Shown piece by piece: positions 7,573 through 42,135 of a DNA stretch of 64,000 bases. Positions within the stretch are counted from its first letter, which is position 1; every line of letters begins with the position of its first letter. The stretch is taken from NCBI RefSeq assembly GCF_003334765.1, contig NZ_QOWT01000003.1, one strand, 5' to 3'. The notes beneath the pieces are model-generated. The model saw only the letters and a program-made list of their open reading frames with translations. It made no database searches and was not told the DNA's origin. The stretch is from Escherichia coli (GTDB lineage: Bacteria > Pseudomonadota > Gammaproteobacteria > Enterobacterales > Enterobacteriaceae). Made by a program: the position numbers and the translations under genes.

Positions 7573-8292
7573 ATGAAAAACGACGTCATCTCACCGGAAT
7601 TTGATGAAAACGGCCGCCCGCTGCGCCGTATCCGTAGTTTTGTGCGCCGCCAGGGGCGACTGACCAAAGGCCAGGAACATGCGCTGGAAAACTACTGGCC
7701 GGTGATGGGCGTTGAGTTCAGCGAAGATATGCTGGATTTCCCTGCGCTTTTTGGCCGTGAAGCGCCGGTGACGCTTGAGATTGGTTTTGGCATGGGCGCG
7801 TCGCTGGTGGCAATGGCTAAAGATCGCCCCGAGCAGGACTTCCTCGGCATTGAAGTGCATTCACCGGGCGTTGGTGCGTGCCTGTCTTCTGCGCATGAAG
7901 AGGGCTTAAGCAACCTGCGCGTGATGTGTCACGATGCGGTTGAAGTGCTGCATAAAATGATTCCTGACAATTCATTGCGCATGGTGCAGCTCTTTTTCCC
8001 TGACCCGTGGCACAAAGCGCGCCATAATAAACGCCGTATCGTTCAGGTGCCGTTTGCCGAGCTGGTAAAAAGCAAACTGCAGCTGGGGGGCATATTCCAT
8101 ATGGCGACCGACTGGGAACCTTATGCGGAACATATGCTTGAAGTGATGTCTTCTATTGACGGTTATAAAAACCTGTCAGAGAGCAATGATTACGTACCGC
8201 GTCCGGCATCACGTCCGGTGACGAAATTTGAACAACGTGGTCATCGTCTTGGTCACGGAGTATGGGACTTAATGTTCGAGAGGGTGAAATAA
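7573..8292 (+). CDS. trmB: tRNA (guanine46-N7)-methyltransferase (239 aa)
   Basis: [31 protein letters not shown]... recognised. Confidence 0.95.
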
Positions 8293-8618
8293 TGGCAAAG
8301 AACCGTAGCCGTCGTCTGCGTAAAAAAATGCACATCGACGAATTCCAGGAATTAGGATTTTCGGTGGCATGGCGATTCCCGGAAGGTACATCGGAAGAAC
8401 AGATTGATAAAACCGTTGATGACTTTATTAACGAGGTTATCGAACCGAACAAACTGGCCTTTGACGGCAGCGGTTATCTGGCCTGGGAAGGTCTGATCTG
8501 CATGCAGGAAATCGGCAAATGCACCGAAGAACATCAGGCGATTGTGCGTAAGTGGCTGGAAGAACGCAAACTGGAAGAGGTACGCACCAGCGAACTTTTC
8601 GACGTTTGGTGGGACTAA
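8292..8618 (+). CDS. yggL: DUF469 protein YggL (108 aa)
   Basis: [29 protein letters not shown]...; start overlaps trmB stop by 1 nt. Confidence 0.9.
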   Translation: MAKNRSRRLRKKMHIDEFQELGFSVAWRFPEGTSEEQIDKTVDDFINEVIEPNKLAFDGSGYLAWEGLICMQEIGKCTEEHQAIVRKWLEERKLEEVRTSELFDVWWD

Positions 8619-10859: not shown

Positions 10860-11867
10860 GTGAAAAAGCAATGGATTGTTGGTACGGCGCTGTTTATGTT
10901 GATGACTGGTAATGTCCGGGCAGATGGTGAACCGCCAACTGAAAATATCTTAAAAGATCAATTCAAAAAGCAGTATCACGGCATTCTCAAGCTTGATGTC
11001 ATCACCTTAAAAAATCTTGATGCTAAGGGTAATCAGGCCACCTGGTCAGCGGAAGGCGATGTCTCTTCCAGTGACGATCTCTATACCTGGGTCGGTCAGT
11101 TGGCAGATTACGAGCTGCTCGAACAGACCTGGACGAAAGATAAACCGGTGAAATTCTCGGCGATGTTAACCAGTAAAGGAACGCCCGCGTCTGGCTGGTC
11201 GGTGAACTTTTACTCTTTTCAGGCGGCAGCCAGCGATCGTGGGCGGGTGGTTGACGATATCAAAACCAATAATAAATATCTGATCGTGAATAGCGAAGAT
11301 TTCAATTATCGCTTTAGTCAGCTTGAGTCTGCGTTGAATAACCAGAATAACTCGATTCCTGCACTGAAAAAGGATGTAAAAGCGCTTGATAAGCAAATGG
11401 TGGCGGCGCAGAAAGCAGCGGATGCATATTGGGGAAAAGATGCAAACGGTAAGCAAATGACCCGCGAAGACGCCTTTAAAAAAATTCACCAACAGCGTGA
11501 TGATTTTAATAAACAGAACGATAGTGAGGCGTTCGCGGTTAAATATGACAAAGAGGTTTATCAACCGGCGATTGCGGCATGTCATAAACAGAGTGAAGAG
11601 TGTTATGAAGTGCCAATTCAGCAGAAACGAGATTTTGATATCAATGAACAACGGCGACAGACTTTTCTGCAATCACAAAAACTTAGCCGTAAATTGCAGG
11701 ATGACTGGATAACGCTCGAAAAAGGGCAATATCCGTTAACGATGAAAGTTTCAGAAATAAACAGTAAAAAAGTCACGATTTTGATGAAAATTGACGATAT
11801 CAACCAGGCTAATGAACGCTGGAAAAAAGATACCGAACAATTGCGGCGCAATGGGGTGATTAAGTAA
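10860..11867 (+). CDS. yggM: DUF1202 family protein YggM (335 aa), GTG start
   Basis: 335-aa secreted ORF; synteny ansB-yggM-hemW. Confidence 0.85.
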   Translation: MKKQWIVGTALFMLMTGNVRADGEPPTENILKDQFKKQYHGILKLDVITLKNLDAKGNQATWSAEGDVSSSDDLYTWVGQLADYELLEQTWTKDKPVKFSAMLTSKGTPASGWSVNFYSFQAAASDRGRVVDDIKTNNKYLIVNSEDFNYRFSQLESALNNQNNSIPALKKDVKALDKQMVAAQKAADAYWGKDANGKQMTREDAFKKIHQQRDDFNKQNDSEAFAVKYDKEVYQPAIAACHKQSEECYEVPIQQKRDFDINEQRRQTFLQSQKLSRKLQDDWITLEKGQYPLTMKVSEINSKKVTILMKIDDINQANERWKKDTEQLRRNGVIK

Positions 11868-11889
11868 TTTTTGCGATGACGCAAGAGTT

Positions 11890-11924
11890 GTAGCCGGATG
11901 TTGCGTACACGCCGCATCCGGCAA
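11890..11924. repeat. single REP-like palindrome
   Basis: GTAGCCGGATGTTGCGTACACGCCGCATCCGGCA. Confidence 0.7.
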
Positions 11925-11931
11925 TACAAAT

Positions 11932-13068
11932 TTACTCAGCCAGAAAAAGCTCCAGCAGCGAATTTAAAAACAACTTCCCATGTTCCGTTATCTGCCAGTA
12001 ATCCGCACATTCTGTGAGATAACCCTGAGCGATAGCCTCGTCTAACTGTGGGCGAATAACCTCTTCTGAAAGGCCAGTATACTGGCTAAACTCCACGCGC
12101 GGCGCGGCTTCCAGCAAACGGAAGCGATTCATAAAGAACTCAAATGGTTTATCTGCGGCTTCGACATCACGCTGGCTTTCCAGATACCGCCCCTGCATAA
12201 AACCACGTGGATGACGCGTTTTGGTGGTACGCAGAATGCGCCCATCCGGGAAGGTCACTTTGCCATGCGCGCCGCAGCCAATACCGATGTAGTCACCAAA
12301 GCGCCAGTAGTTGAGATTGTGCTGGCACTGATAACCGGGTTTGGCGTAAGCGGAAGTTTCATATTGCTGATAACCCGCTGCGGTTAATAACTGATGCCCC
12401 TGTTCGAAAATGTCCCACAGCGCGTCATCGTCCGGCAGTACAGGAGGGCGCGAGCCAAACAGCGTATTGGGTTCGATGGTCAGTTGATACCAGGAAAGAT
12501 GCGGCGGATTCAGTTCAATGGCCTGGCGTAGATCGCCTAGCGCCTCTTCCAGTGATTGATCCGGTAGCCCATGCATCAAATCGAGGTTAAAGCTACGTAA
12601 CCCTAAACCGCTCGCCAGATTTGCCGCTCGTTTCGCTTCTTGCGGGCCATGAATGCGCCCAAGTCGTTTCAGCTTTTCTTCGCTAAAACTCTGTACGCCA
12701 ATGGAGATGCGGTTCACACCAGCACGCTGATAATCAACAAAGCGATCGGCTTCAACCGTACCAGGGTTCGCTTCCATCGTAATTTCTGCATCCGCTGCCA
12801 GCGGCAAACGCGCACGTACGCCGTTCAGCAGCGTTTGCATCGCCGGGCCGGAAAGCAGGCTCGGCGTACCACCGCCAATAAAGATTGTCTTTACTTCACG
12901 GCCCTGAGCGTAAGCCACATCGTTGTCCAGATCGTTAAGCAGATGCTGAACATAATCGTCGTGCGGCACTTCTCCTTTCAACGCGTGAGAGTTGAAATCG
13001 CAGTACGGGCATTTCTGCACGCACCACGGGATGTGAATGTAGAGACTCAGCGGCGGTAATTTAACCAT
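11932..13068 (-). CDS. hemW: heme chaperone / radical SAM family protein HemW (378 aa)
   Basis: [27 protein letters not shown]... CxxxCxxC motif. Confidence 0.95.
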
Positions 13069-13654
13069 TACGTAAAGCGTCCAGCAGCAGTTTCAACGCC
13101 TGACCACGGTGGGAAATGGCGCTCTTTTCTTCGCGGGTCAGTTCGGCAGCGGTTTTCCCTTCGGAAGGTACGAAGAAGATTGGATCATAACCAAAGCCAC
13201 CAGTGCCCGCTGGTTCACGAGTAATCACGCCTGGCCAGCTACCGTGGCATACCAGCGGAGTGGGATCTTCCGCGTGACGCAGATATACCAGCACGCAGTG
13301 GAAACGCGCCTGACGTTGGTCGTCCGGTACGTCTTTCATTGTTTCCAGCAGTTTTTGCAGATTCTTTTGATCGGTCGCGTCTTCACCGGAATAACGCGCG
13401 GAGTAAATACCCGGCGCGCCACCCAGCGCATCTACCGCCAGACCGGAGTCGTCGGCAATTGCCGGTAAACCGGTCACTTTTGCCGCATGGCGCGCTTTCA
13501 GAATCGCGTTTTCGATAAAGGTCAGGCCGGTTTCTTCAGCGGAATCTACGCCGAGGTCTGTTTGGGCAACGATATCAAGACCGAAGTCGCTAAGCAGCGA
13601 CGCCAGCTCACGCACTTTACCGGCATTGCCGGTTGCGAGGACAACTTTTTGCAT
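13061..13654 (-). CDS. rdgB: dITP/XTP pyrophosphatase RdgB (197 aa)
   Basis: [21 protein letters not shown]... recognised; 8-nt overlap with hemW. Confidence 0.95.
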
Positions 13655-13661
13655 AGGATAC

Positions 13662-13952
13662 CTAATTAATTAACGCCGCGATTTCTGGCGGGATTTGTTG
13701 CGGATTAATGATTTTAATTTGTTTGTGGCGGCCAAGTTCGCCTTTTTCAATCACCACCTGGCTTTTGGCAACCCGGAATAGCTTACCGAGAAACTTCACC
13801 AGATGGCTGTTGGCCTGGCCGTCAACCGGCGGCGCGGTAATGGCGACTTTTACCTCGTCGCCATGTAAACCGACAATAGAATCACGGCTGGCTTTCGGCT
13901 GAATATAGAGCCGTAAAACCAGACCGTCATCATTAACTGTTACGGCACTCAT
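13662..13952 (-). CDS. yggU: DUF167 protein YggU (96 aa)
   Basis: [24 protein letters not shown]...; ATG overlaps yggT stop as ATGA; an in-frame upstream ATG would extend to 13964. Confidence 0.85.
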
Positions 13953-14515
13953 AACGCCATCCACAGCCCCGGCAGCAGCATATTTCCGGTCGCCTGCAAG
14001 ACTTCTGCGACACCCATATTGATGACATACAGCAGCAGAACGAGGATCATCGGCGAGAAATCAATCCCACCCATTGCCGGTAGCAAGCGGCGAATCGGGC
14101 GCAGCAGCGGATCGGCCAGCTGAATCAGCACGTATTCAATCGGGCTACGACCCTGGCTTACCCAGCTCATAATCGCCATCACCAGCAGGACCCAGAAAAT
14201 CAGCAGGCCGATGGTTTTCAGCAGAATTAATAAACCGGCAATCCAAATGATTGGCAGGAAGGTCACCACTTTAAACAGCACGATGGCTTTAATGAAACTG
14301 AGAATATAGGCAACCAGCAGCGAGGCGCTATCAATGGGTCCCATTGCCGGAATAACGCGGCGCAGTGGCCCGATAATCGGCTGCGTTACCTTCACTACAA
14401 ACTGTGAGAAGGGGTTGTAAAAATCACAATGAGCCCACTGCATCCAGATGCGTAATAACAGCACCATGGTATACAGCTCAATGACCGTTGAAAGCAGGAA
14501 AGTCAACGTATTCAT
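13949..14515 (-). CDS. yggT: YggT family membrane protein (188 aa)
   Basis: 188-aa polytopic membrane ORF in the yggS-yggT-yggU-rdgB-hemW operon. Confidence 0.9.
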
Positions 14516-14532
14516 GGCGTTCCTTTAATTCC

Positions 14533-15237
14533 TTATTTTTTAGAGTAATCACGCGCACCAAAAATTGCAGTGCCGATACGAACCATCGTGCTACCTGCCG
14601 CAATGGCGGCTTCCATATCGTCCGACATTCCCAGAGAGAGCGTGTCGATATGCGGGTAGCGCGTTTTCAGTCCGGCAAATGCTACAGCCATTTGGCGTGC
14701 AACTTCAAACTGCCTTACATATTCTGACTCAGGCGCAGGGATTGCCATCAGCCCGCGCAGACGTAAACGCGGTAGTTCAGCGACCGCAGCTGCCAGCTCG
14801 TCCAGTTCAGCCAGTTGAATCCCGGACTTACTGTTTTCATCACTAATATTAATTTGAATCAGTACGTTAAGAGGGGGAAGTTCTGCCGGGCGCTGGTCGT
14901 TCAGACGGGTAGCGATGCGCAAACGGTCGATGGTATGACACCAGTCGAAATGCTCTGCCACCAGGCGGCTTTTATTAGACTGCAACGGGCCAATAAAATG
15001 CCATTCTAATCCTGTTACGCCCAGTTCCTGAAAGTGGCGAATTTTATCTACCCCTTCCTGAACGTAGTTTTCACCAAATTGACGCTGCCCGGCATCAATG
15101 GCTTCTGCGATGGCGCTCGCAGGTTTTGTTTTACTGACTGCAAGCAGCGTAATTTCTTCTGGAGAACGGCCGCAACGCGTTGCAGCCGCTGAGATTTTGT
15201 CCCGGACCTGTGCCAGGTTATGCGCAATATCGTTCAT
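14533..15237 (-). CDS. yggS: PLP homeostasis protein YggS (234 aa)
   Basis: MNDIAHNLAQVRDKISAAATRCGRSPEEITLLAVSKTKP... recognised. Confidence 0.95.
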   Translation of the reverse strand: MNDIAHNLAQVRDKISAAATRCGRSPEEITLLAVSKTKPASAIAEAIDAGQRQFGENYVQEGVDKIRHFQELGVTGLEWHFIGPLQSNKSRLVAEHFDWCHTIDRLRIATRLNDQRPAELPPLNVLIQINISDENSKSGIQLAELDELAAAVAELPRLRLRGLMAIPAPESEYVRQFEVARQMAVAFAGLKTRYPHIDTLSLGMSDDMEAAIAAGSTMVRIGTAIFGARDYSKK

Positions 15238-15254
15238 TTTCCGAGGATCTTAGT

Positions 15255-16235
15255 ATGAATATGGAAGAAATTGTGGCCCTTAGTGTAAAGCATAACGTCT
15301 CGGATCTACACCTGTGCAGCGCCTGGCCCGCACGATGGCGTATTCGCGGGAGAATGGAAGCTGCGCCGTTTGACGCGCCGGACGTCGAAGAGCTACTGCG
15401 GGAGTGGCTGGATGACGATCAGCGGGCAATATTGCTGGAGAATGGTCAGCTGGATTTTGCTGTGTCGCTGGCGGAAAACCAGCGATTGCGCGGCAGTGCG
15501 TTCGCACAACGGCAAGGTATTTCTCTGGCGTTACGGCTGTTACCTTCGCACTGCCCGCAGCTCGAACAGCTTGGCGCACCACCGGTATTGCCGGAATTAC
15601 TCAAGAGCGAGAATGGCCTGATTCTGGTGACGGGGGCGACGGGGAGCGGCAAATCTACCACGCTGGCGGCGATGGTTGGCTATCTCAATCAACATGCCGA
15701 TGCGCATATTCTGACGCTGGAAGATCCTGTGGAATATCTCTATACCAGTCAGCGATGTTTGATTCAGCAGCGGGAGATTGGTTTGCACTGTATGACTTTC
15801 GCATCGGGATTGCGGGCTGCATTGCGGGAAGATCCTGATGTGATTTTGCTCGGAGAGCTGCGTGATAGCGAGACAATCCGTCTGGCGCTGACGGCGGCAG
15901 AAACCGGGCATCTGGTGCTGGCGACATTACACACGCGCGGCGCAGCGCAGGCAGTTGAGCGACTGGTGGATTCATTTCCTGCGCAGGAAAAAGATCCCGT
16001 GCGTAATCAACTGGCAGGTAGTTTACGGGCAGTGTTGTCACAAAAACTGGAAGTGGATAAACAGGAAGGACGCGTGGCGCTGTTTGAATTACTGATTAAC
16101 ACACCCGCGGTGGGGAATTTGATTCGTGAAGGGAAAACCCACCAGTTACCGCATGTTATTCAAACCGGGCAGCAGGTGGGGATGATAACGTTTCAGCAGA
16201 GTTATCAGCAGCGGGTGAAAGAAGGGCGCTTGTGA
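15255..16235 (+). CDS. yggR: PilT-like type IV pilus retraction ATPase homolog YggR (326 aa)
   Basis: Walker A GATGSGKST; start MNMEEIVALSVKHNVSDLHL 25 codons inside ORF 15180..16235. Confidence 0.9.
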   Translation: MNMEEIVALSVKHNVSDLHLCSAWPARWRIRGRMEAAPFDAPDVEELLREWLDDDQRAILLENGQLDFAVSLAENQRLRGSAFAQRQGISLALRLLPSHCPQLEQLGAPPVLPELLKSENGLILVTGATGSGKSTTLAAMVGYLNQHADAHILTLEDPVEYLYTSQRCLIQQREIGLHCMTFASGLRAALREDPDVILLGELRDSETIRLALTAAETGHLVLATLHTRGAAQAVERLVDSFPAQEKDPVRNQLAGSLRAVLSQKLEVDKQEGRVALFELLINTPAVGNLIREGKTHQLPHVIQTGQQVGMITFQQSYQQRVKEGRL

Positions 16236-16266
16236 CGTTGCTGTGTCTGATACGAATTGTAAATAT

Positions 16267-16360
16267 GCCCGATGCGCAAGCTTATCGGGCCTACAAGGGA
16301 AGCGTAACTTTGAATTCGCACTCACTGTAGGTTGGATAAGGCGTTTACGCCGCATCCAAC
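16267..16360. repeat. REP/BIME pair
   Basis: GCCCGATGCGCAAGCTTATCGGGCCTAC ... GTAGGTTGGATAAGGCGTTTACGCCGCATCCAAC. Confidence 0.85.
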
Positions 16361-16408
16361 ATGAAACAATGAGCACATTGTCAGAAATCTGTGCGCTAGT
16401 AAATCGCC

Positions 16409-16825
16409 TTAATATCCCTGCTCGAAATAGCTTTCGAGAATAATAACCGCAGAGGCAGAGTCGACTTTGCCTTTGTTGAGCGCCCGATAGCCGCCCTGTT
16501 CAAACAGACCGGAACGTGCCTCCACGGTGCTAAGTCGCTCGTCATGGAGCTTTACTTCAACACCGAAACGACCATGAATACGGTTGGCAAATTTACGCGC
16601 TCTGGCGGTTAACGGCTGTTCGGTGCCGTCCATATTCAGCGGCAAACCGACGATGATTTCGTCCGGCTGCCACTCTTTCAGTAAACGCTCGATAATGTTC
16701 CAGTCCGGCGTACCGTCCTGCGCTTTAATTGCAGGCAAAGGGCGAGCGGTGCCGGTAATGCGTTGGCCGACCGCTACGCCAATGCTTTTGGTGCCGAAGT
16801 CGAAGGCGAGTAAGGTTCCACTCAT
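16409..16825 (-). CDS. ruvX: putative pre-16S rRNA nuclease / Holliday junction resolvase-like RuvX (138 aa)
   Basis: [30 protein letters not shown]...; start overlaps yqgE stop. Confidence 0.93.
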
Positions 16826-17388
16826 CAGGCGTGTCCTGCCACACCAGGCATGGTGAGAATATCCACACCAATCAGTTTTGCCGCCTCGCGCCAGCGGTCG
16901 GCAATCGGCGTTTTGAACAGAATATTCAGATCTGCCGGGGCCGTTAGCCACGCGTTATCGAGAATTTCTTGTTCCAGTTGACCTTTCTCCCAGGAGGCAT
17001 AACCCAGAGCCACCAATACGTCAGACGGTTGTTTATCGGTGCCGAGCGTTTCCAGCACATCGCGGGAAGTGGTCATCACTGTGTTGTCTGAAATGCGAAT
17101 GCTGGAAGCAAAATTGGAGGGCGGAGTATGCAAAATAAACCCGCGATCTTCAGCCAGCGGACCGCCGAGCATAACCGGTTTATCCAGACGGATTGATTCA
17201 TCACGCGGCTCCGGCGTGATCTTCAGCTTTTCCAGAATCCCTTCAATTTTGAGATTTTCCAGCGGCTTGTTGACGATGATCCCCATTGCACCATTGGTAT
17301 TATGTTCGCAAATGTAGACCACGGAACGACGGAAAATCGGATCCTGGAGAGCAGGCATGGCAATAAGAAAGTGATGCTGTAAATTCAT
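16825..17388 (-). CDS. yqgE: UPF0301 protein YqgE (187 aa)
   Basis: [30 protein letters not shown]... recognised. Confidence 0.9.
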
Positions 17389-17496
17389 TGTCAGAGGTTC
17401 TGTTTCCTGGTTCAAAAAAGCAACAGCGCCCAGTATGCGTGGAAAGAAGGGCGCTGTCACTCAGAGTCTCAACGAGATCCTTCTCGCTAAGGTGGG

Positions 17497-18447
17497 TTAC
17501 TGCTGCTGTAAACGTGCTTCGATGGCATCCATTAACATTCCGGTGATCGACACCGGAAACTCTGCTTCAATCTCACGAATACAGGTTGGGCTGGTGACGT
17601 TAATTTCAGTCAGACGGTCGCCGATGATATCCAGACCAACAAAAATCAGCCCTTTTTCTTTCAGCGTCGGCCCAATCTGACGGGCGATTTTCCAGTCACT
17701 TTCCGTCAGCGGACGAGGTTCACCGCGACCACCGGCAGCCAGATTGCCACGGGTTTCGCCCCCCTGCGGAATACGCGCCAGGCAATACGGCACCGGCTCG
17801 CCATCCACTACCAGCACGCGTTTGTCGCCATCTTTAATGGCTGGCAGGTAATTTTGCGCCATGCAGTAGCGAGTGCCATGCTCAGTCAGGGTTTCGGCAA
17901 TCACGCCGAGGTTTGGATCACCTTCTTTCACGCGGAAAATCGACGCGCCGCCCATACCGTCCAGCGGCTTAAGAATGATGTCGCTGTGTTTTTCCCAGAA
18001 AGCTTTTAGCTGCGCTTTATTGCGTGTGACCAGCGTTTCTGGTGTTAAGTCAGAGAACCAGGCAGTGAACAGTTTTTCGTTACAATCGCGCAGGCTCTGC
18101 GGCTTGTTAACGATCAGCGTCCCTTTATCTTCGGCACGTTCCAGAATATAGGTCGCGTAGATAAACTCGGTATCAAACGGCGGGTCTTTACGCATCAGGA
18201 TCACATCGAGATCGGCCAGCGGCAGATCCTGCTCACCCGTGAACTCGTACCATTTATCGTAGTTCTGTTCGACGCTCAAAGTACGGGTACGAGCGCGAGC
18301 CTCACCATTGATCAAATAGAGATCGGCCATCTCCATATAGTGAAGTTCGTAACCACGACGCTGTGCTTCCAGCAACATAGCGAAACTGGAATCTTTCTTG
18401 ATGTTGATGTTTGCGATGGGGTCCATCACGATGCCGAGCTTGATCAT
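17497..18447 (-). CDS. gshB: glutathione synthetase (316 aa)
   Basis: MIKLGIVMDPIANINIKKDSSFAMLLEAQRRGYELHYMEM... recognised. Confidence 0.97.
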   Translation of the reverse strand: MIKLGIVMDPIANINIKKDSSFAMLLEAQRRGYELHYMEMADLYLINGEARARTRTLSVEQNYDKWYEFTGEQDLPLADLDVILMRKDPPFDTEFIYATYILERAEDKGTLIVNKPQSLRDCNEKLFTAWFSDLTPETLVTRNKAQLKAFWEKHSDIILKPLDGMGGASIFRVKEGDPNLGVIAETLTEHGTRYCMAQNYLPAIKDGDKRVLVVDGEPVPYCLARIPQGGETRGNLAAGGRGEPRPLTESDWKIARQIGPTLKEKGLIFVGLDIIGDRLTEINVTSPTCIREIEAEFPVSITGMLMDAIEARLQQQ

Positions 18448-18459
18448 TATTCTTCTCCG

Positions 18460-19191
18460 TTAGCCCAAATCGCCAAAACGCACTTGTAGCGCGGTAATGG
18501 CGGTGAGCGCAGTTGTCTCAGTACGCAAAACGCGAGGTCCCAACAGGATATCAGTAAATTGATAGCGGGCAGTCATGGCAATTTCATCTGCCGATAAACC
18601 GCCTTCCGGGCCAATCAGCAGGCGGACGCGTTCGACCGGTAACGGCAACGTATTGATGCTGTTGCTGGCGCGCGGGTGAAGATTCAGTTTCAGTCCTTCA
18701 TCCTGCTCTGCACACCAGGCTTCCAGATCCATCGCTGGACGGATTTCCGGCACCCGGTTACGGCCACACTGCTCACAGGCAGCAATTGCAATCTTCTGCC
18801 ACTGCTGGAGCTTCTTGTTCAGACGTTCACTATCCAGTTTAACGCCGCAGCGCTCAGAAAAAAGTGGCGTAATGAGGCTTACACCGAGTTCGATCGATTT
18901 CTGGATAGTAAATTCCATTTTTTCACCACGCGACATCACCTGACCGAGGTGAATATGCAGCGGAGATTCGCGATCGTCGATCTGGCCTTCCAGCACCTTC
19001 ACTTCCACGCTTTTTTTGCTGGCGCTGGTAATTTCGGCGTCAAAGACCTGGTTGCTGCCGTCAAACAATTGCAGCGCCTGTCCCGGCCCCATACGCAGTA
19101 CGCGCCCGATATGGTTGGCGGCATCTTCGCAAAGCGCGATGTGAGAATGGCTGGTCAGTGGTTCAGGATGATAAATGCGGGGGATACGCAT
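18460..19191 (-). CDS. rsmE: 16S rRNA (uracil1498-N3)-methyltransferase RsmE (243 aa)
   Basis: [34 protein letters not shown]...; start 9 codons inside ORF. Confidence 0.93.
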
Positions 19192-19270
19192 AGTTAAAAA
19201 TCCGCGTCGTCTCCCCACGCGGTTGTACGCGTGGGGTAGGGGTTAACAAAAAGAATCCCGCTAGTGTAGG

Positions 19271-19978
19271 TTAGCTCTTTCGCGCCTGGCAAGCGCGTTG
19301 CACATACGGGTTATGATTGCCCTGCACCTTCGCGATGCGTTCATCACGCTCGCACTCCCAGTCGGTAACTGGATACATCTTGTCCCATGCGTTGAACAGC
19401 TGCGTTTGCTGACGAGAGAGTGTCAGGTTGTATTGGTCACGCATATAGAAGTAGGTGCGCGCAATGGCACCGCGTGCACGCGCTGGTGGCTCGGCAACTT
19501 TTTCTTTGAAATCGACCTTCATGGCGCATTGACCGTACTGGCCTTCACCGCCATTCCACTGGCTGTACATAAAGTTGCCGCGATCGCCATTCACCTCACC
19601 GACTGACGGCTGCAGGTTATGCATATCGCTTTCCATCTTGCGATAGACCGGATCTTTGGCGCAATTTTTACGTCCACCGTCCTGCCAGCACTGGCGCTGG
19701 TGACCGAATTGCCAGGCAGGAACGACGTGTTCCCACTCTACGCGGCTGGCACGGTTTTCATTTTTTCGCACCTGATAGCCGCACGATTGCAGATCAACAA
19801 CGCCTTTTTTGCCCTGCCAGTTAATTTTACATCCGCAATAAAACGTACCGGGCGCGTCAGCGTGGACTTTTACCGCCGCGGCTTTCGCTTGAGAAAAACT
19901 ATTGATACCTTCGGCCAATGCCGGGCCGGAAAATGCTGCGCTCAGTACCACCGCAGCAATAGACAAATAACGGTACAT
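19271..19978 (-). CDS. endA: periplasmic endonuclease I (235 aa)
   Basis: [44 protein letters not shown]... recognised. Confidence 0.95.
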
Positions 19979-26547: not shown

Positions 26548-27279
26548 ATGAAAAAATGGAAAGTACGTAGCGCGTTGATAGCATTAGTCGTGCTGCTGGC
26601 CGGTTGTTCCAGTAATGCGCAGTATAATAGCAGTACATCGGGCAATGTCGGCACCGCCTGGGGTGGGGATGTGCACTCATCGGTTCAGGGCGTATCTGCT
26701 GAGCGAGCCTGGCGCGATCCGGCAGAGATGATCGTTATTAGTTATTCGACTACTGTTCCTTCGGGCTACGACCGCGTTTATAGCATTCGTATTAACGAAC
26801 TGGAATATGCTATTCGCGATGGTAATTTTAATTCTCTACCTATTACGCGGGTTTATGATTCATCCAATAATGAACCACGCTATATTGTCCATGCCAGAAT
26901 CGGAATGAATTATCAATTATATATCCGTAATTACAGTCGTAACACCAACTACGAGATCGTTGCTACGGTTGATGGCCTGGATGTGCTGAACGGCAAGCAA
27001 GGTTCGCTGAATAACAATGGCTATATTGTGAATGCCGGAGATTCGTTAGCGATTAAAGGATTCCGCAAAGATAAACATACCGAAGCGGCTTTTCAGTTCG
27101 CCAACGTTGCTGATTCCTACGCAGCCAATTCGGCGCAAGGCGATGTGCGTAATACCGGTGTAATCGGCTTTGCCGCCTTTGAATTACAAGGCACGGCGCA
27201 AAACGCGCTGCCACCGTGCTCTGGACAAGCGTTTCCGGCGGACAACAATGGCTATGCGCCGCCACCGTGTCGGAAATAG
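26548..27279 (+). CDS. uncharacterised lipoprotein (243 aa), not part of K-12 gene order as I know it
   Basis: RBS GAGGGA 8 nt upstream of ATG; signal peptide and lipobox MKKWKVRSALIALVVLLAG-C; N/Y/S-rich body; C-terminal ALPPCSGQAFPADNNGYAPPPCRK with two PPC motifs; lower GC than flanking genes; flanked by terminators. Confidence 0.75.
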   Translation: MKKWKVRSALIALVVLLAGCSSNAQYNSSTSGNVGTAWGGDVHSSVQGVSAERAWRDPAEMIVISYSTTVPSGYDRVYSIRINELEYAIRDGNFNSLPITRVYDSSNNEPRYIVHARIGMNYQLYIRNYSRNTNYEIVATVDGLDVLNGKQGSLNNNGYIVNAGDSLAIKGFRKDKHTEAAFQFANVADSYAANSAQGDVRNTGVIGFAAFELQGTAQNALPPCSGQAFPADNNGYAPPPCRK

Positions 27280-34614: not shown

Positions 34615-35892
34615 ATGAAAACCAAAGTTGCTGCTATTTATGGCAAGCGGGATGTCCGTCTGCGCGAATTTGAATTGCCCGAAATTACCGATAATGAACT
34701 GTTAGTGAGTGTAATTTCTGACAGCGTCTGTTTATCGACCTGGAAAGCGGCGTTACTCGGTAGTGAACATAAACGCGTACCCGACGATTTAGAAAATCAT
34801 CCGGTCATTACCGGGCATGAATGTGCCGGGGTTATTGTTGAAGTGGGTAAAAATCTCACCGACAAATATAAAAAAGGCCAGCGTTTTGTATTGCAACCGG
34901 CGATGGGGTTACCAAGCGGATATTCAGCGGGCTACAGCTACGAATATTTTGGCGGTAACGCCACCTATATGATTATTCCTGAAATAGCCATTAACCTGGG
35001 CTGCGTATTACCGTATCACGGCTCTTATTTTGCTGCGGCGTCGCTGGCAGAGCCTATGTGCTGCATTATTGGCGCTTATCATGCCAATTATCACACCACG
35101 CAATATGTTTATGAGCATCGCATGGGCGTTAAACCTGGCGGCAATATTGCGCTGCTGGCATGTGCTGGCCCGATGGGCATTGGCGCTATCGATTATGCCA
35201 TTAACGGCGGCATACAACCGTCGCGGGTGGTGGTGGTCGATATCGACGACAAACGCCTGGCCCAGGTACAGAAGCTGCTGCCGGTGGAGCTGGCGGCCAG
35301 TAAAGGCATTGAGCTGGTGTATGTGAATACCAAAGGGATGAGCGATCCGGTACAGAAGCTGCGGGCGCTGACAGGAGATGTCGGGTTCGATGACATTTTT
35401 GTTTATGCGGCGGTGCCTGCTGTCGTTGAGATGGCTGACGAATTACTGGCGGAAGATGGCTGCCTGAACTTCTTTGCCGGGCCGACGGATAAAAACTTCA
35501 AAGTGCCGTTTAATTTCTACAACGTCCATTACAACAGCACGCACGTCGTCGGTACATCCGGCGGTTCAACGGACGACATGAAAGAGGCGATTACCCTTAG
35601 CGCCACGGGACAGTTACAGCCGTCGTTTATGGTGACCCATATTGGTGGCCTGGATGCGGTGCCAGAAACCGTGCTCAATCTGCCGGATATCCCAGGCGGT
35701 AAAAAACTCATTTATAACGGCGTGACCATGCCGCTCACTGCCATTGCCGATTTTGCCGAAAAAGGCAAAACCGATCCGCTGTTTAAAGAGCTGGCGCGGC
35801 TGGTTGAGGAAACGCACGGCATCTGGAATGAGCAGGCCGAGAAATATCTGCTGGCGCAATTTGGCGTTGATATCGGGGAGGCCGCACAATGA
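34615..35892 (+). CDS. yggP: putative zinc-dependent polyol/alcohol dehydrogenase YggP (425 aa)
   Basis: MDR-family features (GHECAGV, nucleotide-binding GAGPMG); synteny. Confidence 0.85.
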   Translation: MKTKVAAIYGKRDVRLREFELPEITDNELLVSVISDSVCLSTWKAALLGSEHKRVPDDLENHPVITGHECAGVIVEVGKNLTDKYKKGQRFVLQPAMGLPSGYSAGYSYEYFGGNATYMIIPEIAINLGCVLPYHGSYFAAASLAEPMCCIIGAYHANYHTTQYVYEHRMGVKPGGNIALLACAGPMGIGAIDYAINGGIQPSRVVVVDIDDKRLAQVQKLLPVELAASKGIELVYVNTKGMSDPVQKLRALTGDVGFDDIFVYAAVPAVVEMADELLAEDGCLNFFAGPTDKNFKVPFNFYNVHYNSTHVVGTSGGSTDDMKEAITLSATGQLQPSFMVTHIGGLDAVPETVLNLPDIPGGKKLIYNGVTMPLTAIADFAEKGKTDPLFKELARLVEETHGIWNEQAEKYLLAQFGVDIGEAAQ

Positions 35893-36854
35893 TGTCCCTG
35901 GCGTGGCCATTATTTCGCGTTACGGAACAGGCAGCGTTGGCTGCCTGGCCGCAAACCGGATGTGGCGACAAAAATAAAATTGATGGCCTGGCGGTCACCG
36001 CGATGCGCCAGGCATTAAACGATGTCGCTTTTCGTGGGCGAGTGGTTATCGGCGAGGGAGAGATTGACCATGCGCCGATGCTGTGGATTGGCGAAGAGGT
36101 GGGCAAAGGCGATGGGCCAGAAGTCGATATCGCGGTTGACCCGATTGAAGGCACGCGGATGGTGGCGATGGGGCAGAGCAATGCGCTGGCGGTGATGGCC
36201 TTCGCCCCACGAGGCAGCCTGCTACACGCGCCCGATATGTATATGAAAAAGCTGGTTGTTAATCGACTGGCGGCGGGCGCGATTGATCTGTCTTTGCCTC
36301 TGGCGGACAACTTGCGTAACGTGGCGCGGGCGTTAGGTAAACCGCTGGACAAGCTGCGCATGGTTACGCTTGATAAACCGCGCCTGAGTGCCGCAATTGA
36401 GGAAGCAACACAGCTGGGCGTGAAGGTTTTTGCCCTGCCGGATGGCGATGTCGCCGCCAGCGTGCTGACCTGCTGGCAGGATAATCCTTACGACGTGATG
36501 TACACCATTGGCGGTGCGCCGGAGGGCGTGATTTCTGCCTGTGCCGTTAAAGCATTAGGCGGGGATATGCAGGCCGAGCTGATTGACTTTTGTCAGGCTA
36601 AAGGGGATTACACGGAAAATCGGCAGATTGCAGAGCAGGAGCGCAAGCGTTGCAAGGCAATGGGCGTTGACGTTAACCGTGTGTATTCGGTCGATGAACT
36701 GGTGAGGGGGAACGATATCCTCTTTAGCGCTACGGGCGTGACGGGCGGCGAGCTGGTGAACGGTATCCAACAGACGGCGAATGGGGTGCGGACGCAGACA
36801 TTACTGATCGGCGGCGCGGACCAAACGTGTAATATAATAGACTCCCTGCATTGA
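35889..36854 (+). CDS. yggF: class II fructose-1,6-bisphosphatase (GlpX-like) YggF (321 aa)
   Basis: 321-aa ORF recognised as GlpX paralog; ATGA overlap with yggP. Confidence 0.88.
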   Translation: MMSLAWPLFRVTEQAALAAWPQTGCGDKNKIDGLAVTAMRQALNDVAFRGRVVIGEGEIDHAPMLWIGEEVGKGDGPEVDIAVDPIEGTRMVAMGQSNALAVMAFAPRGSLLHAPDMYMKKLVVNRLAAGAIDLSLPLADNLRNVARALGKPLDKLRMVTLDKPRLSAAIEEATQLGVKVFALPDGDVAASVLTCWQDNPYDVMYTIGGAPEGVISACAVKALGGDMQAELIDFCQAKGDYTENRQIAEQERKRCKAMGVDVNRVYSVDELVRGNDILFSATGVTGGELVNGIQQTANGVRTQTLLIGGADQTCNIIDSLH

Positions 36855-36875: not shown

Positions 36876-37385
36876 ATGGCGACGCTGACAGAAGATGATG
36901 TGCTTGAGCAACTGGAGGCACAGGACAATTTATTTTCATTTATGAAAACTGCGCATACCATTTTGCTCCAGGGGATACGCCAGTTTCTGCCGTCGCTGTT
37001 TGTCGATAACGATGAAGAGATCGTCGAATATGCAGTGAAGCCGTTACTCGCCCAAAGCGGCCCGCTTGACGATATTGATGTTGCACTGCGTTTGATTTAT
37101 GCGTTGGGGAAAATGGATAAATGGTTGTACGCCGATATCACGCATTTTTCCCAGTTCTGGCATTACCTGAACGAACAGGATGAAACGCCCGGATTTGCCG
37201 ATGACATGACCTGGGATTTTATCAGCAACGTCAATAGCATAACCTGCAATGCGACGCTCTATGACGCATTGAAAGCGATGAAGTTCGCCGATTTCGCCGT
37301 CTGGTCAGAGGCGCGTTTTAGCGGAATGGTCAAAACGGCGCTGACGCTGGCAGTAACGACCACCTTAAAGGAATTAACGCCGTGA
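36876..37385 (+). CDS. yggD: MtlR-like regulator domain protein YggD (169 aa)
   Basis: 169-aa ORF; synteny. Confidence 0.8.
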   Translation: MATLTEDDVLEQLEAQDNLFSFMKTAHTILLQGIRQFLPSLFVDNDEEIVEYAVKPLLAQSGPLDDIDVALRLIYALGKMDKWLYADITHFSQFWHYLNEQDETPGFADDMTWDFISNVNSITCNATLYDALKAMKFADFAVWSEARFSGMVKTALTLAVTTTLKELTP

Positions 37386-38095
37386 AAATTGAATTAACGG
37401 TGAATGGGCTGAAGATACAGGCACAGTACCAGAACGAAGAGATTGAAAATGTACATAAACCGTTGCTGCACATGCTGGCGGCCTTACAGACGGTAAATCC
37501 GCAGCGGCGTACGGTGGTTTTTCTTTGCGCTCCGCCGGGGACGGGTAAATCAACCCTAACCACCTTCTGGGAATATCTCGCGCAACAAGACCCGGAACTG
37601 CCCGCTATTCAGACGCTCCCGATGGATGGTTTTCACCATTACAATAGCTGGCTGGATGCGCATCAATTGCGCCCCTTCAAAGGCGCACCAGAGACATTTG
37701 ACGTTGCGAAACTGACGGAAAATCTGCGCCAGGTCGTGGAAGGGGATTGTACGTGGCCGCAGTACGATCGACAAAAGCATGATCCTGTTGAAGATGCGTT
37801 GCACGTTACCGCACCACTCGTCATCGTCGAAGGAAACTGGTTGTTACTGGATGATGAAAAGTGGCTGGAGTTGGCATCTTTCTGCGATTTTTCTATTTTT
37901 ATTCATGCACCTGCTCAAATTCTGCGGGAGCGCTTGATTAGTCGTAAAATTGCGGGAGGATTAACGCGGCAAGTAGCCGAAGCATTTTATGCCCGCACCG
38001 ATGGCCCCAATGTCGAGCGTGTGCTGATGAATAGCCGTCAGGCCAATCTGATAGTAGAGATGACTGAAGAAGGCCGGTATCACTTCACAAGCTGA
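37382..38095 (+). CDS. yggC: P-loop kinase-like protein YggC (237 aa)
   Basis: Walker A APPGTGKST; ATGA overlap with yggD. Confidence 0.85.
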   Translation: MKIELTVNGLKIQAQYQNEEIENVHKPLLHMLAALQTVNPQRRTVVFLCAPPGTGKSTLTTFWEYLAQQDPELPAIQTLPMDGFHHYNSWLDAHQLRPFKGAPETFDVAKLTENLRQVVEGDCTWPQYDRQKHDPVEDALHVTAPLVIVEGNWLLLDDEKWLELASFCDFSIFIHAPAQILRERLISRKIAGGLTRQVAEAFYARTDGPNVERVLMNSRQANLIVEMTEEGRYHFTS

Positions 38096-41930: not shown

Positions 41931-42135
41931 GGCCCGCTCTGCGGGTCTTTTTTTCGCCAAAAGCAAAATTGCCTGATGCGCTACGCTTATCAGGCCTACA
42001 CGTATCCTGCAATATATTGAATTTGCAGGTTTTTGTAGGCCGGATAAGGCGTTCACGCCGCATCCGGCATGACAAAGCGCACATTGATATCTGTCTGAGC
42101 CCCGCTCTGCGGGGATTTTTTCGCCAAAAGCAAGG
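41931..42135. repeat. fbaA terminator plus REP/BIME pair, flanked by a duplicated 35-bp terminator-like module
   Basis: copy 1 CCCGCTCTGCGGGTCTTTTTTTCGCCAAAAGCAA (41933-41967), REPs GCCTGATGCGCTACGCTTATCAGGCCTAC and GTAGGCCGGATAAGGCGTTCACGCCGCATCCGGC, copy 2 CCCCGCTCTGCGGGGATTTTTTCGCCAAAAGCAA (42100-42133). Confidence 0.85.

Follow-up and report, generated by a model that had tools for sequence, protein, structure and literature searches.

Stop/start overlaps between neighbouring genes in the yqgA to gcvP segment of the Escherichia coli chromosome: an ordinary junction geometry that suggests translational coupling

What does the sharing of nucleotides between the stop codon of one gene and the start codon of the next reveal about where the downstream gene begins, and about whether its translation depends on that of its neighbour? 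The window considered here, a 64,000-nucleotide segment of the E. coli chromosome running from yqgA to gcvP, raises this question at six junctions, in which a first-pass annotation saw both an indication of translational coupling and support for start sites lying inside longer open reading frames. Each junction was read off the sequence and then compared with the NCBI PGAP gene calls from a pair of near-identical E. coli genomes, placed on the window by mapping; of the 66 CDSs so mapped, 64 translate intact. All six were found at the positions previously claimed, and the overlaps are confirmed as a real feature, ordinary and known already.

All six pairs belong to the -4/-1 class of same-strand overlaps, four at -4 (one of which can alternatively be read as -1) and two at -1. 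On the plus strand, trmB (7573-8292) and yggL (8292-8618; both PGAP coordinates) meet at -1 in TAATG (8290-8294), where the trmB stop TAA (8290-8292) and the yggL start ATG (8292-8294) have base 8292 in common. The other -1 pair, yqgE/ruvX on the minus strand, is joined by TGATG (16823-16827), with base 16825 common to the yqgE stop TGA (16827-16825) and the ruvX start ATG (16825-16823). Also on the minus strand, the yggU start ATG (13952-13950) and the yggT stop TGA (13951-13949) form ATGA (13949-13952), a distance of -4. The remaining pairs are on the plus strand. At yggP/yggF, ATGATG (35889-35894) surrounds the yggP stop TGA (35890-35892), and yggF may begin at the annotated ATG at 35889 (-4) or at the in-frame ATG at 35892 (-1); the K-12 distance is given as -4 in Table S2 of Huber et al. 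(2023; PMC10666635). At fumE(yggD)/yggC, GTGA (37382-37385) combines the yggC start GTG (37382-37384) with the fumE(yggD) stop TGA (37383-37385), and at pepP/ubiH, ATGA (58553-58556) combines the ubiH start ATG (58553-58555) with the pepP stop TGA (58554-58556); both are at -4. The earlier description of these junctions as ATGA and TGATG thus needs amending for fumE(yggD)/yggC (GTGA), for trmB/yggL (TAATG) and for yggP/yggF, whose ATGATG allows a 4-nt or a 1-nt overlap, and it fits the others. Also present in the window, and omitted from that description, are two 8-nt overlaps on the minus strand, rdgB/hemW (ATGGTTAA, 13061-13068, comprising the hemW start ATG and the rdgB stop TAA) and scpA/meaB (ATGATTAA, 49077-49084, comprising the meaB (argK) start ATG and the scpA stop TAA), as well as a convergent 4-nt stop/stop overlap between srsR and scpC (45791-45794).

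No gene-junction geometry is commoner in E. coli, or in prokaryotes at large, than the stop/start overlap. Ranked by frequency, distances of -4 come first, followed by -1 and -8, both in E. coli and over 1,695 species (PMC10666635). The six pairs were already known, all of them having been tabulated by Huber et al. (2023; PMC10666635), whose Table S2 carries them and rdgB/hemW with the distances found here. Enrichment of overlaps in the window was ruled out: the K-12 rate of 707/2987 (PMC10666635) predicts 11.4 overlaps among the 48 same-strand pairs, and 8 were counted. The motif itself is equally commonplace. A or G stands before half of the annotated TGA stops (9/18), and before approximately 47% of TGA triplets across the window as a whole. 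No gene starts at 5 of the 9 [A/G]TGA stops, nor at 4 of the 7 sites where a stop is followed by TG. Because ATG or GTG lies across a stop codon at chance frequency, the ATGA/TGATG motif is unfit as sole evidence for a start site and was dropped from that use, which is also the practical lesson to be drawn from these junctions. Chance is exceeded in another respect: across many species, conserved genes start precisely at the overlap codons.

The first-pass annotation had taken the overlaps to favour its corrected starts over the longer open reading frames. The starts that it chose are right on independent evidence; the overlap argument is weak alone, given the frequency of the motif. Moreover, the matter concerns three genes only, yggL, yggU and ruvX, for which longer in-frame alternatives exist (ATG at -30, position 8262; GTG at -12, position 13964; and GTG at -126, position 16951, respectively); the open reading frames of yggF, yggC and ubiH contain no start codon ahead of the overlapping one. 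In yggL, yggU and ruvX, cross-species substitutions 5' of the start fall on the wobble positions of the frame in which the upstream gene is read, and follow the downstream frame from the start codon on; 5' of the yggL ATG, they keep to the trmB reading frame. The extension of ruvX to the -126 GTG is interrupted by a stop in 75 of 80 species. The older start of yggU, the GTG at -12, gives a protein of 100 aa, and it was from this codon that YggU was formerly annotated and expressed, the chain in PDB 1N91 having four extra N-terminal residues. In 6 of 67 species CTG takes the place of that codon, and a published N-terminal peptide corresponds to position 1 of the 96-aa K-12 YggU, i.e., the Met of the overlapping ATG (PMC13245402, Table S1).

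It could nonetheless be argued that some of the overlaps are annotation artefacts and that the true start lies upstream, in the longer frame, or a few codons downstream. Besides the chance frequency of the motif and the history of YggU, this reading draws on the two adjacent ATGs of yggF, an in-frame GTG at +18 in yggC and an ATG at +27 in ubiH. The comparative and N-terminal peptide evidence opposes it, as do family profiles: each of the six downstream proteins aligns to an NCBIfam profile starting within its first 6 residues, at profile positions 1-4. YggC residues 1-236 match positions 1-236 of the 237 in NF006742 (the match that favours the annotated GTG of yggC over the one at +18), UbiH residues 1-392 match positions 4-395 of the 395 in NF004356, and Bacillus subtilis YrrK (1VHX) residues 2-137 align to RuvX 2-135. 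In addition, either yggF ATG overlaps the yggP stop anyway. Judging from the standard FAD-binding motif, a ubiH start at +27 would break VIIVGGGMAG, at the cost of its first strand and its first two glycines. An artefactual origin is consequently regarded as extremely improbable: the overlapping codons hold up as genuine start codons, in yggF via either of the two adjacent ATGs.

Published initiation data sets add little to this picture. For the six downstream genes, the TetRP supplement of Nakahigashi (2016) holds no entry, which is weakly informative since mainly revised starts are listed there; the proteome supplements of Mori (2021) gave no matches; and the INRI-seq supplement contains only an internal out-of-frame site in yggC. 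The TRAINSPOTTER table has a row for yggU only, with neither a Ribo-RET nor an INRI entry, a blank for which low expression could equally account.

The geometry of several junctions is constant, or nearly so, among Enterobacteriaceae. The distance is -4 in 64/64 species for yggT/yggU, with a yggU start codon that varies (ATG in 55, GTG in 9, TTG in 3); it is -1 in 80/80 species for yqgE/ruvX, the stop being either TGA or TAA, and -1 in 38/39 for trmB/yggL. Likewise, rdgB/hemW is at -8 in 63 of 68 species. Short non-overlapping spacers at the same loci vary freely, with 8 to 19 different lengths. For yggP/yggF, fumE/yggC and pepP/ubiH, the evidence comes from the K-12 table, from the annotations of both E. 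coli genomes and from the COG-pair statistics of Huber et al. (2023). In these statistics, the median distance for AlgH(YqgE)@YqgF, taken over 369 species, is -1 (Table S4). Beyond Enterobacteriaceae, the median is +2 for YggT@YggU (first quartile -4), and for PepP@UbiH it is +1 (first quartile -4; 237 species). A fixed overlap is partly expected without selection for coupling, because any change would alter a protein terminus.

Such considerations lead to the principal alternative, that the overlaps are real but a neutral by-product of genome compaction and of start/stop drift, and that the downstream genes initiate independently from their own Shine-Dalgarno (SD)-like sites. An origin of this kind has been the subject of modelling (PMC3887535), and the positive medians of YggT@YggU and PepP@UbiH across phyla are consistent with it. 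Against it stand the geometry fixed in 64/64, 80/80 and 38/39 species although the overlapping codons mutate, and the abundance of the class, -4 and -1 being at least ten times commoner in prokaryotes overall than distances beyond the -8 to +6 window (PMC10666635).

The SD-like motifs bear on both readings. Their strength was expressed as the energy of the duplex with the anti-SD, a value of -5 kcal/mol or lower being reached by 13% of random coding 20-mers. At all of the six junctions but one, the upstream gene contains such a motif, a trait that is typical of the class but not obligatory. The trmB 3' end contains TCGAGAGGG (8276-8284, plus strand), 7 nt before the yggL ATG, at -6.3 kcal/mol, and the threshold of -5 is reached in 100% of 42 species. 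On the minus strand, GTGGATGGC (13956-13964) in the yggT 3' end lies 3 nt before the yggU ATG (-5.5 kcal/mol; -5 or lower in 94% of species), and GTGGCAGGA (16834-16842) in the yqgE 3' end lies 8 nt before the ruvX ATG (-5.5 kcal/mol; -5 or lower in 95% of 80 species). GTGGATGGC also includes the in-frame yggU GTG at -12. On the plus strand, the strong motif CGGGGAGGC (35874-35882) in the yggP 3' end precedes the first yggF ATG by 6 nt, at -11.0 kcal/mol, and TTAAAGGAA (37365-37373) in the fumE 3' end precedes the yggC GTG by 8 nt, at -5.6 kcal/mol. The motif 5' of the ubiH ATG, GCTGCGAGA on the plus strand, is weak (-3.0 kcal/mol), as is the only one at the hemW start. These motifs could serve ordinary de novo initiation, in keeping with the neutral origin, to which the strong motif of yggF lends support and against which the weak one of ubiH counts. 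Their conservation may also reflect coding constraint on the upstream protein.

A further possibility is coupling in its classical form, in which the downstream initiation region would be masked by pairing with the upstream coding sequence and opened by translating ribosomes, so that a new 30S subunit binds and no restart occurs. Such structure-mediated coupling is documented for E. coli atpHA and rplJL (cited in PMC6728339), and Huber et al. have suggested that de novo initiation at overlaps is prevented by local structure. In the window, the predicted unpaired probability from -15 to +3 averages 0.46 at eight overlapped starts (0.32-0.60) and 0.49 at 55 other starts (p = 0.56), by a crude in silico prediction with a 160-nt context and eight cases. 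The initiation regions are thus predicted to be as accessible as those of other genes, which gives masking no support, the prediction being too weak a test to dismiss it, and would suit neutral overlaps. In the experiments of Huber et al., coupling needed no more than 99 nt of the upstream sequence, and later no more than 15 nt, which speaks against long-range structures (PMC6728339, PMC10666635). This mechanism is considered very unlikely for the six pairs.

Each pair is probably co-transcribed, an inference from the overlap, which leaves no room for a terminator and a promoter between the two genes; a scan for promoter and terminator patterns over 11800-19400 found as many as in shuffled sequence and has no bearing on operon structure. 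Within such mRNAs, termination-reinitiation between co-directional operon genes is in our analysis the best explanation of the six overlaps, and a probable one. The ribosome ending the upstream gene would halt with the downstream AUG or GUG in or beside its decoding site; once the peptide is released, the ribosome or its 30S subunit would remain on the mRNA and restart at that codon, retention being helped by the moderate SD-like motifs within the upstream gene's final 20 nt. Output of the downstream protein would then be at least partly proportional to upstream translation, and independent SD-driven initiation would probably contribute too, to a degree differing from pair to pair. A search of the literature found no published coupling experiments on any of the six pairs. 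Coupling is nevertheless probable by analogy, because four of the five native E. coli 4-nt overlaps tested were coupled by termination-reinitiation, the exception being bioBF, and the SD motif mattered in four of the five (Huber et al., 2019; PMC6728339). It has also been reported that coupling drops steeply at a gene distance of approximately 20 nt (PMC10666635). The same experiments weigh on the neutral origin in both directions, the four coupled pairs speaking against it and bioBF, which initiates de novo despite its 4-nt overlap, speaking for it. Function speaks for it as well: Table S2 of Huber et al. (2023) flags the pairs as 'CMPLX not' or '---', none being a known heteromeric complex, so that coupling lacks its customary justification, a fixed stoichiometry. 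On balance, the neutral origin is judged unlikely. As to the first-pass annotation, which held that the overlaps indicate coupling, the present analysis favours a milder wording: they suggest it.

The rigid 1-nt overlap of yqgE/ruvX invites a more specific reading, namely that YqgE and RuvX are obligatorily produced in a fixed ratio or are functional partners. This idea, which is quite unlikely, is based on the -1 distance kept in all 80 Enterobacteriaceae despite switching between TGA and TAA, and on the same median over 369 species. RuvX is an essential nuclease of 16S rRNA maturation; YqgE, of the AlgH family, is uncharacterised and was lately reported to drive persistence and to dampen stationary-phase translation (2024 persister study). 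Were the two genes coupled, knocking down or deleting yqgE could shift RuvX levels, and part of the published yqgE phenotype might act through ribosome maturation. That study does not mention ruvX, and its complementation from a plasmid speaks for a contribution of YqgE itself.

As a discovery, these junctions carry little weight, stop/start overlaps of 4, 1 and 8 nt being a textbook trait of bacterial operons. Their interest is practical. Edits at the 3' end of yggT, yqgE, trmB, yggP, fumE or pepP, be they deletion, truncation or recoding, remove the ribosome-binding region and the start codon of the downstream gene, and may also cut its supply of ribosomes; the clearest case of such a risk is yqgE, directly upstream of the essential ruvX. 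In addition, the cross-species data independently back three starts that the longest-ORF rule misses, those of yggL, yggU and ruvX.

Several known systems provide a frame for these pairs. In atpHA, rplJL and infC-rpmI of E. coli, and in phage coat/replicase systems, downstream output is likewise tied to upstream translation within one mRNA; in those systems, however, RNA pairing hides the initiation region and an overlap is not required, whereas reduced accessibility is not predicted here. E. coli bioB/bioF has the same ATGA geometry within a biosynthetic operon but is not coupled, with de novo initiation despite a weak SD, and geometry alone is therefore no proof of coupling. The -4 (ATGA/GTGA) and -1 (TAATG/TGATG) pairs of Huber et al. 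differ in that short-distance pairs are 4.5-fold enriched for complexes, whereas the six pairs described here encode no known heteromeric complex. They share with the present pairs the geometry, the organism and an SD-like motif within the upstream gene's final 20 nt, and it is by analogy with them that coupling is proposed here.

Six same-strand gene pairs share start and stop nucleotides, as the first-pass annotation had claimed, and each junction can be read directly in the sequence at the position proposed. On the plus strand, these are trmB/yggL (TAATG, 8290-8294, 1-nt overlap), yggP/yggF (ATGATG, 35889-35894, 4 nt, or 1 nt if the second ATG is used), fumE (yggD)/yggC (GTGA, 37382-37385, 4 nt) and pepP/ubiH (ATGA, 58553-58556, 4 nt); on the minus strand, they are yggT/yggU (ATGA, 13949-13952, 4 nt) and yqgE/ruvX (TGATG, 16823-16827, 1 nt). 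The ATGA and TGATG motifs by which the annotation described them thus hold for most junctions, but not for fumE/yggC and trmB/yggL. The start of yggF is ambiguous, as two adjacent in-frame ATGs each overlap the yggP stop. Three overlaps were absent from the earlier list: rdgB/hemW (ATGGTTAA, 13061-13068) and scpA/meaB (ATGATTAA, 49077-49084), which are same-strand overlaps of 8 nt, and the convergent pair srsR (ygfI)/scpC, which shares the 4 nt TTAA (45791-45794), so that the two TAA stops overlap on opposite strands.

Gene coordinates were obtained by mapping the NCBI PGAP annotation of strains GF43 and NRZ14408 onto the window, which spans yqgA to gcvP. On translation, 64 of the 66 mapped CDSs were intact with identical coordinates; the other two, gcvT and gcvH, lie past a small indel near the window end. 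A 4.5-kb piece around the stretch flagged by the first-pass annotation has a match in each of the 5,426 complete E. coli genomes of the collection, and is 100% identical in several non-K-12 strains.

Elsewhere in the window, a 243-aa ORF with a lipoprotein-type signal peptide (MKKWKVRSALIALVVLLAGC...), named merely 'hypothetical protein' by PGAP, lies between speA and speB (26548-27279), and SNPs relative to strain GF43 are dense from ~27159 onward. Between fbaA and mscS (~41966-42098), an insert of ~130-170 nt that is missing in GF43 consists of REP/BIME-like palindromes, among them GCCTGATGCGCTACGCTTATCAGGCCTAC and GTAGGCCGGATAAGGCGTTCACGCCGCATCCGGCA. A 45-nt length difference from GF43 (~52520-52565) falls within a small ORF between argP and rpiA (52460-52690), annotated as a short 'hypothetical protein'; the ORF has 76 aa in this strain but 61 aa there.

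In yggF, yggC and ubiH, no start codon comes between the in-frame stop and the overlapping codon; only yggL (ATG, 30 nt upstream), yggU (GTG, 12 nt upstream) and ruvX (GTG, 126 nt upstream) have a longer ORF in the same frame. These three were compared across 80 Enterobacteriaceae loci fetched with a RuvX query, in which genes were placed by tblastn. The ruvX extension of E. coli is closed by stops in 75 of the 80 species, and residues 2-137 of B. subtilis YrrK (PDB 1VHX) align to RuvX 2-135. Although 36 of 39 species keep the upstream yggL ATG, it coincides with conserved codons for Val-Trp in trmB. Over the 60 nt before the ATG at 8292, variability by yggL-frame codon position is 0.123/0.023/0.018, with its maximum at the trmB wobble position, and past this ATG it turns to 0.053/0.023/0.190. 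At the upstream yggU position, 6 of 67 species have CTG, and a 14-residue N-terminal peptide has been found at position 1 of the 96-residue K-12 YggU (2026 N-terminomics, PMC13245402 Table S1). In the YggU structure (1N91/1YH5), residues 5-100 of the 108-residue chain correspond to the 96-aa protein; the four extra N-terminal residues in 1N91 suggest that the construct follows the older GTG 12 nt upstream (13953-13964), since superseded by the ATG overlapping the yggT stop. The alignments of all six downstream proteins to NCBIfam profiles begin within the first 6 residues of the protein and at positions 1-4 of the profile; this match is supportive rather than independent, since annotations of this kind partly went into the models. 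The start sites favored by the first-pass annotation are therefore correct, although the overlap motif by which it had justified them is a weak argument by itself. For K-12, further initiation sites are listed by INRI-seq (PMC9825163, supplementary file 6): one at an internal ATG, out of frame, 67 nt inside yggC (37382-38095), and one at an ATG in frame, 6 nt inside yggR (15255-16235).

The motif alone shows no excess over chance. A or G precedes 9 of 18 annotated TGA stops, versus ~47% of TGA triplets across the whole window. Of the nine [A/G]TGA stops, five start no gene; likewise, four of the seven stops followed by TG start none. Nor is the number of overlaps unusual: 8 of 48 same-strand neighbour pairs overlap (17%), versus ~11.4 expected from the K-12 rate of 24% (707/2,987 unidirectional pairs at -8 to +6; Huber et al., 2023, PMC10666635). 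The excess over chance lies in the conserved genes, which in many species have their starts at precisely these codons.

The modal intergenic distance is -4 for yggT/yggU in 64/64 species, -1 for yqgE/ruvX in 80/80, -1 for trmB/yggL in 38/39 (the genes abut in one) and -8 for rdgB/hemW in 63 of 68 Enterobacteriaceae species. This geometry is kept with varying codons: yggU starts with ATG in 55 of 67 species, GTG in 9 and TTG in 3, and yqgE ends in TGA (46 species) or TAA (34), with an extra Ser codon in ten species. Short non-overlapping spacers at the same loci are labile, with 12 lengths for yggU/rdgB, 8 for yggS/yggT and 19 for rsmE/gshB. Because an overlap can be altered only via a protein terminus, part of this rigidity is expected without selection for coupling. 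In a wider survey (Huber et al., 2023, Table S4, PMC10666635), median distances were -1 for AlgH(YqgE)@YqgF (q1 -4, q3 +3, n=369), +2 for YggT@YggU (q1 -4, q3 +11, n=253) and +1 for PepP@UbiH (q1 -4, q3 +18, n=237), which indicates that close spacing is general and that exact overlap is broadly kept only for yqgE/ruvX.

The yqgE/ruvX pair, in which the last base of the yqgE stop is the first of the ruvX start codon, is the one thread of some value. yqgE (16825-17388) is reported to drive persistence and reduced translation in stationary phase (2024 Nature paper, PMC11634777), in a study that does not mention ruvX. Given the rigid overlap and the essentiality of ruvX, manipulation of yqgE could affect RuvX, perhaps through polarity or coupling.

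SD-like motifs, scored as anti-SD duplex energy within the last 20 nt of the upstream gene, reach -11.0 kcal/mol for yggF, -6.3 for yggL, -5.6 for yggC, -5.5 for both yggU and ruvX, and -3.0 for ubiH; those of hemW (-3.0) and meaB (-0.7) are weak. In the 80-species set, yggL, yggU and ruvX have motifs of -5 kcal/mol or below in 94-100% of cases, a level reached by 13% of random coding 20-mers. Initiation regions of overlapped and other genes in the window did not differ in predicted accessibility (0.46 vs 0.49, p = 0.56), a crude measure that thus gives no sign of structural masking. A scan for promoter and terminator patterns stayed at chance level and adds nothing on co-transcription, which we infer for the six pairs. 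Among native E. coli 4-nt overlaps assayed as -99 to +30 fragments, termination-reinitiation coupled four of five pairs and the SD played a part in four of five, while bioBF initiated independently despite its overlap (PMC6728339); insertion of ~20 nt between genes made coupling collapse (PMC10666635). Taken together, the motifs, the accessibility and this literature point to termination-reinitiation as the best reading: translational coupling of the six pairs is probable by analogy, and would be helped by the embedded SD-like motifs, with some independent initiation besides, in a share that may differ by pair.

The six overlaps are an already known feature: together with rdgB/hemW, they are tabulated for K-12 with exactly these distances, and marked as forming no known complexes (Huber et al., 2023, Table S2, PMC10666635). 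Their anatomy here fits this well-described class throughout, with no departure from it.
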